Positions 2,539 to 62,858 of a stretch of 64,000 nucleotides of DNA are shown here, piece after piece. Where the stretch lies: positions 56,730,001-56,794,000 of the forward strand of contig OX597824.1 of the NCBI GenBank assembly GCA_951406725.2, written 5' to 3'. Every line of letters starts with the position of its first letter. Position 1 is the first letter of the stretch. The DNA comes from Octopus vulgaris. Lineage: Eukaryota. The position numbers and the translations under genes were made by a program. Under the pieces are notes generated by a model that saw nothing but the letters and a program-made list of their open reading frames with translations, was not told the origin of the DNA and searched no databases.

Positions 2539-2625
2539 AACGACACGTGTTTCGCGGCTATATTTAAGAAATGATTATAGCAGTAAAGAAATCACTTCGA
2601 TATAAATATAGTCGCTCATCAGGTT
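2539..2625 (-). ncRNA. Type I hammerhead ribozyme, long stem II
   Basis: AAC-CTGATGA-GCGACTATATTTA...TAAATATAGCCGC-GAAA-CACGT-GTC-GTT; palindromic stem III ACACGTGT. Confidence 0.85.
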
Positions 2626-4004
2626 AAAAATAAAATAGAACAATAAAATAATTAATTAATAAATATACTTTAATATATATATATATATATATATATATAT
2701 ATATATATATATACAGATATATGAAAATCCTAAATATACATGTATACTCTTCAATCTTCGCTAAGCTAAGTCTGATTTTTTATAGTTTCTCTATTTCATT
2801 TGAATATTGAACCGTTGTGTGTTTGAAATTATTATTATTGTTGAGATTATTATTGTTTGTTTGTAATATAATTATTTATTTATAGTTTCTTGATAGTATT
2901 TTTTACGCCCGATGTTTAATTGTCATAAAAGATTTTATGTTTTACATATTATTTAATTTGTGAATTAATATTGTTAGACTATATTTCTTATAATAATTAG
3001 ATTATATTTGCATTAAATAGTATTATTTTAAAATAAACTAGTTTTTATTTTAATATAAAATTTATGCTTAACTTTTTTTATCGTGTGATATATTAAATCT
3101 ATAGATATCATACATGGATATTAATATAACGAGTTTATATAATGGATTTGAGTGTATTCGTACTATTTCACATTTTTTATTGTATTTTTCATGAATGGAA
3201 TCGATTGAGTTCATTTTAAAATCTAGATAGATTAACAGAATCGTTGAACTTAGTAATTTAGTTTGCTTATCAATATTAGTTAATTCTTGCTATTATTTTG
3301 ACTTTGATCGTTGTTATTATTGTTATTGTTATTGTTATTGACTGGTTTGGTAGAGGACTGGTGAATGTGATTGTACATCTTCATAGTGTATTGTTCTTTG
3401 GTTCTAATATTTTTGCACCTTTCTTTAATTTGGGGTTGATAGGTTTTCTTACTTTCCATTAACATATTATTCTCGCTATTATTGACAGATATTACTAACG
3501 ACAGATATTGATTATTATCTCTCTCTCTCTCTTTTTTTGTTTTTTATTTTTATTTTATTTTTTTCTATTATTTAATATATTATATTATATATATATAGGT
3601 GGCTTCTGTATTTGTAATACTAAATTTAAGTTAATTAGGTATTATATTATTTGATATTTAGTCAACTTTGTTATAGATTGTTATATTAAATCTATAGATA
3701 CTACACATGTATATTTATTATATGGTTAGCTTATTTAAAGAGTTTGTCTATATTTGAAATATTTCTTATTTTGATTACAATTTAATGACTTGTACTAGCT
3801 TTGTGTATTTTATTTAATTATTTAAGTATTACTTTATTTTTCACTTTTTCACTTAGGATTTTCATGTACATACATACACACACACACACACACACACATA
3901 CATACATACATATATATATATATATATATATATATATATATATATATATATATAGATTAAAGTATATTTATTAATTAATTATTTTATTGTTCTATTTTAT
4001 TTTT

Positions 4005-4091
4005 AACCTGATGAGCGATTATATTTATATCGAAGTGATTTCTTTACTACTATAATCATTTCTTAAATATAGCCGCGAAACACGTGTCATT
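4005..4091 (+). ncRNA. Type I hammerhead ribozyme (inverted sister of 2539-2625)
   Basis: CTGATGA at 4008, GCG...CGC stem II, GAAACACGTGTC ending at 4088. Confidence 0.8.
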
Positions 4092-4364
4092 TTTCTACCT
4101 ATTATATACGTTATTATTATTATTTTTGCAATTTACTTAATCTTTACATTTTATTGATATTTTAATTTTAACTTTTCTATTATATGTAATTTTCTAGTTG
4201 GTGTAATTTAATTGTTCCTTTTGAATTGATAAAAGGTGGGTTTTTTTCTAATTTATACATATATATATATATTATATTGTGTGAAATTTGATTTAGTATT
4301 TCTAAATTGAATTTTTTTTCCTTGTAAGTTTGGATTTTATTCCCTCAAATAATAGTTATTATTT

Positions 4365-4550
4365 CCCCTTCCCTCTGCTCCCTCACTCCCTCTCTCCCCT
4401 TCTCTCTCCCCCTCTCCCTCTTTCCTCCGTCCTCCCCTCCTCCCCTTCCTTCTCCCCTCCTCTCTCCCCCCTCCTCTCCTCTTCCCCCTCTCCTCCCCCT
4501 CTTCTTCCACTCCCCTTCTCCCCCCTCTTCTCCCCTCCCCTCTTCTCCTC
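4365..4550 (+). repeat. Polypyrimidine (CT-rich) low-complexity tract
   Basis: Almost exclusively C/T. Confidence 0.9.
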
Positions 4551-4594
4551 ACTACACCACACGACTTTACACATCACATCATATATGATGTGCC

Positions 4595-59357: not shown

Positions 59358-59712
59358 ATAGGAGAAGGAAAGATCCCGAGAAGGGAAGACAGAGGAAAAA
59401 AATCGCCAGCGGTACTCACGAGGTCACATATTGAAAGATATATATATATATATATATATATATATATATATATATATATATATATATATATATACATATA
59501 TATATTTCGATAGGTGAATGAATTATCCTATGTTTATCGTCAGCATGGAAAATTCGTTGAACCGATACCAGGGTAGCAAATTCACGTCAGAAACACGGTT
59601 GAAGCGACCAGTCCAAGGGTAGAAACTGCGGGTTCATTTGCAGAAATTTGTGTGTTATATATGAATAAATGAAAGAATGGAGTCGAACGAAGATGTTAAC
59701 AAAATTTCTTTA

Positions 59713-59794
59713 CTCTCGACATATGTTTCGAAGACCACATGGTTTCATTCCAAAGGAATAAAGGGTGTATGATGCAATCTTCTCATCAGGAAAG
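59713..59794 (-). ncRNA. Type I hammerhead ribozyme, long stem II
   Basis: CTTTC-CTGATGA-GAAGATTGCA...TGTGGTCTTC-GAAA-CATAT-GTC-GAGAG. Confidence 0.9.
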
Positions 59795-60059
59795 AAAGGG
59801 AGCCTCTCTCGGCAACAAGACAAACAAACATTTCGATGACTGTCTACATGGTAAACAAAACGACAATAAGTGATTTTTTTAAAAACCCGTTAGAAGATTT
59901 GATGTCAAAATTAGATAGTAGGAAGAGAATGATAGGTAGGGAACCAGTGGAAAGGGAAGGGTATGTTGATTAAGAATGTTCAAAGGCTTAGGAAAAAATT
60001 TCACTATTGAAGTGGAGTGTATGTTAAGCTAATTGTTCAAAGCACGATGCCTATCGTAA

Positions 60060-61484
60060 TCATTTGTAAGAGTAAAAAGTATGTTTTTGCCAGTGCTTAC
60101 ATTTATAGGATTTCTCTATGAGTGTGTTTACAACGGGAACCTTAGAGAAGAGGATATGGAAGAGCTCAGAGTTGCAAATGTTACAAAATCTCCTGCCCTT
60201 ATCAAAAGGAAAGGATACAGACAGTATGAACCAATCTAACTTGAAATCTATATTATTGTCTTTAAGACGCCAAACTAATTTACTTAGCCCTGTACTATAT
60301 CGTTTTTTAATATCCCTGAATGTTGAATAATGGTTTGAAATTCTCTTGGATAACTGGGAAGAGGCGCTTCCTATATAGAAGAAGACATCGTTACCAGAGG
60401 AGATTCCATACTGGTAAATAGAATTCTCGATCTTAGAATTACTAGACAAAAAATTAATTCTGTTGGGGTTGTCCTCCGAGATCGAAACTAAGTTTTTATT
60501 GCTATGATTGTTGTTACTATTATTATTAGCGTTAGCAACTACACTATTAGTATTATTGTTAGTATTATTAATGGTAATACAATCAGTAATTTCTCCGTTA
60601 TTGTTATCACTATCAACATTACCATTGTTATTAACACGACTGATACTATTATTAATATTATCATTGTTAACACTATCGCTACTACCATTGCTATTACCAT
60701 TAATACTATTCCTATTAGTATGACTGTATGGTGGGTTGGAATTAGTAAGATTTATTTTGGAATTCCCGGGTGAAGAATCTCTATTTATCAGCTTGGTATT
60801 GTGAGAAGATATAATTTGTGAAAGATTTCTAGTGTTAGAGAAAGCGATTCTGACTATGTGGGAATTGATAATAGAATAATATCTAGAATTTCTGGGAAAG
60901 TTCCTAGCGACGGGTTCACGGAACTGTAAGGGAAGGCTCGATTTAATTTGTTTACCGAAAGGTATTACGAACCAGATACAGTTCTTAGTGGCCTTTGACT
61001 TGTACGTTGAGTTATTTGTGAAAGTAAGGGGAAAATTACTGGGTTGAAAATTTGGGGTTGAACGGCGCTTACCTCCCTTGGTCCGTAAAGAATTTATATT
61101 TTGCATAGTGTTGCTGGCACTACTAGAATAAAAACTACTATTCCTATTACAAGTAACTATTCTATCTGGAGAAGCAGATGTTGGTTTAGAATGAGCTGAA
61201 TCTATGTATGACACTCTGTCCTTATAGCCGGCTTTTGTCAAGGCGGCGTTATAAAAGCCTGCCTTTTGGTTAAAGATGTCAACATTGGCAGAAAATTTAG
61301 AAAGTCTCAAAGATATGTTTTTGACTAGATTATCGGTAACGGGCTTGGCATGATTGCTGTAAAGGCTAATATACTTAAGATTTGTGGAGGGTTTATGGTA
61401 AGGGAAGTATGAGTTATTTTGTAAATTGAGGGTAATGTCTAAGAAGTTGGCTTTAGTTAACTCATCCTCAAAAACGATGTGCAA
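60060..61484 (-). CDS. PLE RT C-terminus/thumb, Asn-rich linker and GIY-YIG endonuclease
   Basis: NFLDITLNL, YISLYSNH, ALTKAGY, SIYQ..FYIGSA, RISNH, STGLSK, CNICNSE, CKH. Confidence 0.9.
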   Translation of the reverse strand: MHIVFEDELTKANFLDITLNLQNNSYFPYHKPSTNLKYISLYSNHAKPVTDNLVKNISLRLSKFSANVDIFNQKAGFYNAALTKAGYKDRVSYIDSAHSKPTSASPDRIVTCNRNSSFYSSSASNTMQNINSLRTKGGKRRSTPNFQPSNFPLTFTNNSTYKSKATKNCIWFVIPFGKQIKSSLPLQFREPVARNFPRNSRYYSIINSHIVRIAFSNTRNLSQIISSHNTKLINRDSSPGNSKINLTNSNPPYSHTNRNSINGNSNGSSDSVNNDNINNSISRVNNNGNVDSDNNNGEITDCITINNTNNNTNSVVANANNNSNNNHSNKNLVSISEDNPNRINFLSSNSKIENSIYQYGISSGNDVFFYIGSASSQLSKRISNHYSTFRDIKKRYSTGLSKLVWRLKDNNIDFKLDWFILSVSFPFDKGRRFCNICNSELFHILFSKVPVVNTLIEKSYKCKHWQKHTFYSYK

Positions 61485-62666
61485 AAAAACCTAACTAACC
61501 TATTTTTAACCTTCTTTATTTTTTGGTTTGAGACATTTTGGAGGTAAAGGAGACAGTCATCGCGATAAAGACCTCCACAGATGTCCAAAATGTCTCAAAC
61601 CAAAAAATACAGAGGGTTAAAAATAGGTATACTTTTTTATTGTTTCAATTGCTTCGGTCAGGTGGCTATGCCCATGCCAGAGCACCGCCTTTACTCGAAG
61701 AAATCAACAACAGGATTCATTCTTCGTAAGCATAGTACTAATTCTATCGGTTTGTTTTGCAAACGACTAAGTTATGGGGACGTAAACACAGCAACATCGG
61801 TAGTCCAGTGATGGTGTTGGTAGAAACACACAAGATACATATATATGTATATATATATATATATATATATATATATATATATACATACATATATATATAC
61901 ACACATATATATATACATAAATGTATATATATATACATACAAAGCAATTAAGATTCAAGTAAATTCCAATGAATTTACTTGAATGTGGTACTTAACTTAG
62001 ATGCACCAGATGCACAATTTTTGCAACTTGTAATAAAGCCTGTCTTTGTATGAAATAATTGTACTAAAAACTAATCCATTCTTGTTGCTTCTTTCTCGTA
62101 TATATACATACATACATATATATATATATATATATATATATATATATATATATATATATACATATGTATATATATATATATATATATATATATATTTACA
62201 TATATATACATATATATACATATATATGTATATATACATATCTACATTCATATATATACATGTATATGTATACAGATATATATATACATATACATATATA
62301 CATATATATACATATGTATATATATGTGTATATATACAAATATATATATATATATATATGTACATGTAAATATATATGTATATATGCATATATATTTGTA
62401 TTTATACATATATATGCACATTTATGCATATTTATACATGTATATATGTATATATATACTTATATATATACATATATATATATATATATATATATATATA
62501 TACATATAGGTATATAGAAATACATATATATATATATATACATATACTGTGTGTATATATACGTATATATGTGTATATATATATCTATATATATATGTAT
62601 TGATAAAACGGTAAGATAACAAAAGAAAGAAAGAGACCTCAATATTATGTAAATACAGGAAATTTA

Positions 62667-62858
62667 TCTATACAATATGTTACATTACTCGGTAGTCAAG
62701 ATAAAACTCTGAGTTTCAGATGCCGAAGTGGAAATCCACAACACCATCTCTTCGGTTATCTGGCTATAACCGAAGAGATGGTGTTGTGGATTTCCACTTC
62801 GGCATCTGAAACTCAGAGTTTTATCTTGACTACCGAGTAATGTAACATATTGTATAGA
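62667..62858. repeat. Perfect ~90-bp-arm palindrome made of two tail-to-tail hammerhead-like pseudo-LTRs
   Basis: ...TCTCTTCGGTTAT CTGGCT ATAACCGAAGAGA...; each arm reads ATAA-CCGAAGA-GATG..CATC-T-GAAA-CTCAGAG-TT-TTAT. Confidence 0.85.

Follow-up and report, generated by a model that had tools for sequence, protein, structure and literature searches.

Long-armed hammerhead motifs in Hydra-clade Penelope-like elements of Octopus vulgaris

A window of 64,000 nt from the Octopus vulgaris genome (assembly GCA_951406725.2, contig OX597824.1, positions 56,730,001 to 56,794,000; "the window" below is this whole stretch) is crowded with hammerhead ribozyme motifs in which stem II is drawn out into a long arm. 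This raises the questions of which elements carry them, what the arm is for, whether the motifs cut, and whether the copies that lie far from any open reading frame (ORF) are mobile units of their own. The reading that we favor, with a probability of about 0.65, is that these are the hammerheads of the pseudo-long terminal repeats (pLTRs) of Hydra-clade Penelope-like elements (PLEs), that they likely cut only when two copies pair through stem III, and that the long covarying stem II likely acts as a scaffold for folding or protein binding.

Hammerheads in the window and their carrier elements

An earlier inspection of the letters alone (the original prediction) had claimed nine canonical hammerhead cores belonging to a diversified PLE ribozyme system. 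All nine CUGANGA cores fall inside the sites that it named, at 2622(-), 4008(+), 5564(-), 5900(+), 7506(-), 9079(-), 45465(-), 49921(+) and 59789(-), and the motifs are type I hammerheads, with CUGANGA, GAAA and NUH around three helices and stem I open. Seven of the nine pass all helices of a strict type I descriptor, the other two (4008 and 5564) having an A.C mismatch at the first pair of stem I. The chance expectation of strict matches is 0.095 per window (maximum 2 in 200 block-wise dinucleotide resamples), and the reversed window gave none. A scan against Rfam returned no hammerhead family among the matches listed for the window (150 of 201), the noise being microsatellite-driven hits of microRNA type. 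The predicted variants at 5113, 59323 and 62667-62858 are present, with one core change each (at 5113, 59323 and 62667), but the first two are short hammerheads rather than long-armed ones, so that the predicted stem II span of about 30-85 nt holds for the canonical sites (29-85 nt) and not for these (12-13 nt). The short type, family G, has 5,118 intact-core matches in the genome against 0 for the control. A second hammerhead-like core at 59543(-) was rejected because it is not kept in other subfamilies of family E. A decayed relative of family F lies at 21620-21690(-), with a canonical CUGAAGA core and a paired stem II but without GAAA or stem III.

Table 1. Hammerheads, insertions and coding remnants in the window (positions counted from its first letter)
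Feature	Position	Strand	Description
Family B insertion	2360..4359		inverted 5'-truncated arm (2360-2741) and 5'-truncated copy of 3' untranslated region (UTR) and pLTR (2745-4359)
Hammerhead B, type I	2539..2625	-	62-nt stem II region; stem III ACACGTGT; predicted cut after 2542
Hammerhead B, second arm, type I	4005..4091	+	mismatch at first stem I pair
Short hammerhead, family G	5113..5150	+	13-nt stem II region; stem III ACGT; mutated core CUGUUGA
Family C unit	5323..5778	-	non-coding, about 420 nt; 34-nt terminal direct repeat; between (TA)n runs
Hammerhead C, type I	5510..5569	-	29-nt stem II region; stem III ATCAATTGAT; first stem I pair mismatched
Hammerhead D, type I	5894..5981	+	57-nt stem II region; imperfect palindrome ACGGTCGT; short 3' fragment (5850-6006)
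Hammerhead D, type I	7425..7512	-	57-nt stem II region; stem III ACGATCGT; 3' fragment (7208-7624)
Hammerhead E, type I	9000..9085	-	55-nt stem II region; 12 contiguous basal pairs; stem III ACATATGT
Endonuclease C-terminus remnant	9662..9844	-	upstream of hammerhead at 9000; 57% identical to ORF at 60060-61490
Family A insertion	44990..50216	-	inverted pLTR at 5' end, truncated ORF, 2.1-kb 3'UTR, 3' pLTR, tail; between (TA)n runs
Hammerhead A, type I, 3' pLTR	45359..45468	-	85-nt stem II region; stem III ACAGCTGT; predicted cut after 45362
Hydra-clade PLE ORF	47614..49845	-	reverse transcriptase (RT), Asn-rich linker, CxCX5C, GIY-YIG; 5'-truncated, ends early near C-terminus
Hammerhead A, inverted pLTR copy	49918..50027	+	identical to hammerhead at 45359..45468
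Short hammerhead, family G	59323..59357	-	12-nt stem II region; core CCGACGA
Hammerhead E, type I	59713..59794	-	53-nt stem II region; stem III ACATATGT; 270 nt downstream of ORF
PLE ORF, 5'-truncated	60060..61490	-	RT thumb to endonuclease; 45% identical to family A ORF in thumb
Family F fold-back insertion	62576..62860		carries two hammerheads
Family F hammerheads, two	62699-62761, 62766-62824	-, +	31-nt stem II region; U4C core; stem III ACTCAGAGT

The carrier is clearest in family A, where the ORF at 47614-49845(-) sits between two identical hammerheads. Scored matches to its RT number 119 in the genome; many are 97-99% identical and several lie within frames of 900-990 amino acids (aa), and family A is young. 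The full unit consists of a 5' pLTR with hammerhead, about 515 nt from the cut to the ATG, the ORF, a 2.1-kb 3'UTR and a 3' pLTR with hammerhead; in four loci (L033, L035, L049 and L050, the last two with frameshifted ORFs) two same-strand hammerheads lie 5.57-5.60 kb apart, the first of them 513-519 nt before the ATG. The 955-aa frame of one locus (L034:2013-4880) contains RWR at 46 (R for K in the RWK motif), DKT at 147, YRDD at 385, CNCRNKNKC at 817, VYIG at 850, CSLC at 915 and CIH at 943, and no CCHH motif was seen in it by eye. Pfam had no match on either PLE ORF of the window or on this frame, and only a sub-threshold GIY-YIG match on a family F locus (L250).

These motifs are those of the Hydra clade, for which a C-terminal GIY-YIG, DKT, RWK, CxCX5C, CxxC and CxH have been described (Craig et al. 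2021, PMC8557442). An octopus member is listed there, and the family A RT tracks the printed Hydra-1_Obim RT motif for motif by eye, so that the motif set and this likeness together place the carrier in the Hydra clade. The elements have a single ORF, an RT with a C-terminal GIY-YIG and no N-terminal endonuclease, insertion into (TA)n, and pLTRs in direct or inverted copies, the last including the inverted 5'-truncated copy and the type I hammerhead in the pLTR that PMC8557442 also describes. Unlike the published elements, in which stem III is mostly 3-4 bp with a loop of 1-3 nt and which are generally shorter than 3 kb, stem III is here mostly a perfect 8-nt palindrome and the family A unit is about 5.6 kb, although size is a tendency and not diagnostic. 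The Naiad clade was considered and rejected, since Naiads have an N-terminal GIY-YIG and no canonical hammerhead. Five of the six long-arm families were linked to a Hydra-type ORF. The predicted PLE system stands, and its clade can now be named; PLE classification and hammerhead chemistry are left unchanged. Between the RT thumb and the endonuclease, the Hydra-type ORFs of this genome are extended by long Asn-rich insertions, so that the frame has 955 aa where most homologues, one of them from Argonauta hians, have about 700 aa. In a quick RT tree (182 columns, without other PLE clades and with family D missing), A, B and E branched separately from the metagenome elements and F fell within these; support was weak, deep forks were below 95 and two length labels were wrong, and the tree is not used as evidence.

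The long stem II arm

Long arms are abundant well beyond the window. The pattern CTGANGA-gap-GAAAC-NNNN-GT-H was counted in the 2.8-Gb assembly in bins of gap length, each with its own control, giving 14,440 matches against 1,057 for gaps of 8-27, 30,569 against 1,638 for 28-58, and 21,365 against 1,295 for 59-89. This amounts to about 49,000 long-arm motifs above control, or one per 57 kb (for this one pattern, with some sites perhaps in two bins), and to a ratio of long to short arms of about 3.5 to 1 for the pattern counted. The window, with eight occurrences, is about sevenfold richer than the genome average. Forty evenly spaced 10-kb stretches contained 12 strict hammerheads, 7 of which belong to one tandem array with short arms. 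Since short-stem descriptors and Rfam miss these roughly 49,000 motifs, hammerheads are probably undercounted in genomes of this kind.

The arm behaves as a structure. At all nine distinct sites tested, the stem II region folds below its shuffles (z -1.9 to -5.9). Across the long-arm families of this genome the region spans 29-112 nt, with 10-30 bp and internal loops. In lineage E (20 sequences), both-sided changes occur in 7 of 12 basal stem II pairs and 89% of cells are paired; column shuffles gave 83% (none of 500 reached the observed value) and slid partners 34-49%. In lineage A (17 sequences), such changes occur in 7 of 20 pairs, 3 of these 7 in an outer helix about 22-31 nt from the core, and 98% of cells are paired against 30-49% with slid partners. 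The predicted long hairpin is thus borne out by folding and by covariation in two lineages, reaching up to about 30 nt from the core, and the arm is under selection as structure. The basal architecture is not uniform: A, B and D have a bulge after 2-3 stem II pairs, and E has 12 contiguous pairs. The terminal loop is far from the core, and no common contact between loop 2 and stem I was found by eye.

Several points weigh against a common scaffold function. The covariation counts ignore relatedness among the sequences, and the structures were derived from the same alignments; a wider set of lineage A (22 sequences) aligned poorly past the basal helix, the tip not being alignable between subfamilies; and across families the arm has no common length (29-112 nt) or evident sequence. 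A rival account takes the arm for a tolerated by-product: in AT-rich lineages, slippage or local fold-back would have enlarged loop 2, which stays paired only to spare the core from misfolding. The spread of lengths fits this account, including that within lineage A (85, 86, 97, 100 and 112 nt), as do the abundance of short-arm families with the same 8-nt stem III (the 14,440 matches above) and the fact that Hydra elements outside this genome manage without a long arm. However, the compensatory changes in the outer helix and in 7 of 12 basal pairs exceed the 2-4 bp that a core needs, and long arms outnumber short ones for the counted pattern. We consider the by-product account possible but doubtful, and prefer the scaffold.

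How far the arm is peculiar to this genome was gauged with an outside control: in Hydra-type metagenome loci searched with the same descriptor, the stem II regions of 64 sense-strand hammerheads (52 of 77 loci) are all 10-25 nt. In File S2 of PMC8557442, the stem II regions listed for Hydra elements measure about 11-26 nt when read by eye. The two ranges together indicate that the long arm marks the families of this genome and not the clade. There is partial precedent, which tells against full novelty, in two spike-moss PLE-X1 motifs, whose stem II regions measure 45-50 nt, and in some Naiads with core halves 35-50 nt apart, both in PMC8557442. A literature search found no account of hammerheads with a 30-110 nt stem II in Hydra-clade or cephalopod PLEs, although earlier examples may exist in Repbase, Dfam, subscription journals, the Terminon paper or the supplements to PMC4209133, to PMC7229834 and to the preprint cited below, which the search did not cover. 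The new part is the length of stem II, the palindromic stem III being of a known, dimer-dependent type. Published hammerheads of the palindrome type are alike in being type I, with a short stem I, a small palindromic helix III and an extra base before stem II, and in occurring as oppositely oriented pairs and in many families per genome; in the published portions available, helix II has at most 6-8 bp, in contrast to the 10-30 bp found here. The window contributes an assignment to clade, a link to an ORF for five families, an outside control for the length of the arm, and covariation measured in 17-20 sequences from each of two lineages.

Pairing of two copies and cleavage

Stem III had been described as a different self-palindrome in each family. 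It is mostly self-palindromic, except that ACGGTCGT at 5895 is an imperfect copy of ACGATCGT and that the family F pair (62667-62858) has the non-palindromic 9-nt ACTCAGAGT, which resembles published Hydra motifs. Nor does each family have a palindrome of its own, since ACAGCTGT is common to many families and one lineage alternates ACATATGT, ACATGTGT and ACACGTGT. Read in a monomer, stem III consists of two pairs that close a palindromic 4-nt loop, as is usual for metazoan hammerheads (PMC4209133). Computed energies are +1.1 to +2.4 kcal/mol for the forced hairpin and -5.8 to -11.1 for the self-duplex, and unconstrained cofolding of two copies gave a double hammerhead in all three families tried (A, D and E). 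Stem III is hence predicted to be unstable in a single copy and to form between two copies, and these models agree with the dimer type originally proposed.

The mechanism that we envisage builds on this pairing. In read-through RNA spanning both pLTRs, the two copies would pair and both would be cut, releasing unit-length RNA, as proposed in PMC4209133. RNA with a single hammerhead would stay uncut; copying would begin about 190 nt downstream of the cut, so that every new insertion includes the motif, and would leave full, truncated and inverted copies in (TA)n. The stem II arm, outside the catalytic core, would hold the two strands of the core in register where the RNA is AT-rich, and the element's own protein may bind it. 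A similar route has been reported for Poseidon of Anolis (PMC11167929), in which copying proceeds from inside RNA lying 3' of an uncut hammerhead and yields fixed 3' ends and tails; Poseidon belongs to another clade, and the route was followed in vitro there, whereas here it is read from the ends of insertions. Viral type I hammerheads (PMC13725137) suggest, by analogy only, that the cut might also serve cap-independent translation.

Alternatively, the motifs could be relics without catalytic activity that persist solely as a structured 3' end recognized by the RT. The core, palindrome and stem I are retained across diverged subfamilies, which argues against this, and the core position that varies is position 7. 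This position is free to vary in active hammerheads. The 5' junctions of family A lend the relics some support and count against our own reading, in that the cut site does not stand out among them: counted by eye, 6 of 44 lie at offset 0, against 5-8 each at +5, +7, +10 and +11 (3 of 47 rows were dropped for a point mutation or deletion, and a script run on 30 of the 47 agrees). A first pattern, in which five of six starts fell exactly at the cut, was rejected as a cleavage footprint, because in offset controls neighboring positions had just as many starts. The same holds for family F, whose core is U4C in all copies examined, ORF-linked ones included, a change reported to reduce hammerhead activity (PMC3088659). 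Because this young family has U4C throughout, full cleavage may be dispensable. In the PLE of PMC11167929, moreover, hammerhead mutants had no effect on insertion in vitro and RNA sequencing revealed no ends at the cut; but the same paper reports protein-assisted cleavage along with internal initiation on uncut RNA. We regard dead relics as quite unlikely, and retain cleavage upon pairing as the better account.

The sole PLE tested in vitro needed protein for cleavage but did not need cleavage for insertion. Family A, with its youth, intact-looking ORFs, two hammerheads per unit and long covarying arm, offers a direct test bed. A bolder version of the scaffold, improbable to our minds, is that stem II is a family-specific RNA handle, the RT of each family binding its own long arm, and the arm selecting the template, assisting pairwise cleavage of the two pLTR hammerheads and perhaps helping translation of the cut, uncapped 5.6-kb RNA. 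If this were true, a ribozyme arm and its enzyme would be coevolving in tens of thousands of copies.

Copies without an ORF, retrozymes and other elements

Several hammerheads in the window have no ORF nearby, and it had been proposed that such copies are retrozyme-like units. Taken as a general explanation, in which they are separate nonautonomous retrozymes spreading as small circular RNAs, this seems very unlikely: it suits family C and tandem arrays elsewhere in the genome, but A, B, D and F are staggered 3' fragments and both E copies of the window have ORF remnants upstream. The copies sampled for each family are best matches and not random copies. In family A, all 18 loci sampled outside the window are pieces of the 3' part of the element. 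Their 5' ends vary and their 3' end is fixed, either about 190 nt downstream of the cut or within a tail, mostly at (TA)n, and one arm often bears a tail consisting of the leader that precedes the ORF. The copy in the window is 5'-truncated and has an inverted pLTR at its 5' end, an arrangement described in PMC8557442.

For B, D and F the ORF links come from wider stretches picked for long shared upstream sequence, the view of 1.5 kb to either side showing a PLE protein match at 0 of 30 B loci and 1 of 30 D loci. ORF remnants lie about 2.5 kb upstream in two family B loci (L216 and L217), family D is linked to an RT in one (L218), and the family F endonuclease lies about 300 nt upstream in three (L249, L250 and L254) and on the inverted arm of a fourth (L247). 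Mapped on these ORF-linked references, the copies of B, D and F are collinear with staggered 5' ends; the family B insertion of the window, which has a 217-nt inverted repeat, is collinear with L216 and L217. Truncated A and B copies look free of ORFs because a UTR of 2.1-2.5 kb separates the ORF from the hammerhead in both families.

Two further arrangements were observed among such copies. The fold-backs of family F, in the window (62576-62860) and at L233-L237, have the same palindromic center at five loci, with long and short arms swapped in some. Short fragments of E and F at 56994-57132 and at 57214-57329 and 57385-57500 start 12-14 nt after the predicted cut.

Family C departs from the explanation by truncated elements and counts against that part of our account. 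Among the families of the window it alone is a non-coding unit, arranged head to tail with one hammerhead per unit. The head-to-tail wrap was found in at least 12 of 30 loci, the copies being mostly of 1-1.5 units and not arrays, and in this organization family C is what Cervera and De la Pena (2020, PMC7229834) and Li et al. (2026, bioRxiv 10.64898/2026.07.22.740005) call a non-LTR (long terminal repeat) retrozyme. The animal retrozymes of these papers are likewise non-coding, with a type I hammerhead and head-to-tail copies of more than one unit, but the likeness is limited to one of the six long-arm families in the window. An RT remnant beside family C in one locus (L224) was rejected as its own ORF, being a separate insertion behind a microsatellite.

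Tandem arrays occur elsewhere in the genome. One (L053:2307-4763, on G000:C1 near 20.00 Mb) has a 359-nt unit and seven short-arm hammerheads with stem III ACCGGT, two of them inverted, and its sequence marks it as a classical non-LTR retrozyme. In two others, each unit has one hammerhead: units of 534 nt, 100% identical and with a 50-nt stem II region, at L300:3015-4894, and units of 545 nt with a 25-nt stem II region at L302:2026-3119. Hammerhead-like motifs of a different architecture, with a stem III of 12-13 nt and stem II regions of 26-27 nt, were seen at L230:6351 and L092:913.

The remaining features of the window belong to other elements. A 968-aa frame at 13769-16675(-) is an APE-type non-LTR retrotransposon (Exo_endo_phos and RVT_1), and a second RT remnant lies at 29192-30523. 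Remnants of an LTR-element integrase zinc-binding domain and of DUF4371 are found at 40289-40789(-) and 36669-37232(-), and a minisatellite with a period of about 95-100 nt and about 11-12 copies, 95-97% identical, at 52492-53758. Two dispersed repeat families of 200-400 nt, which we take to be short interspersed element-like, have many copies in the window, one at 7947-8184, 41463-41688 and 57905-58142 and the other at 18118-18518, 20811-21253 and 58201-58593.

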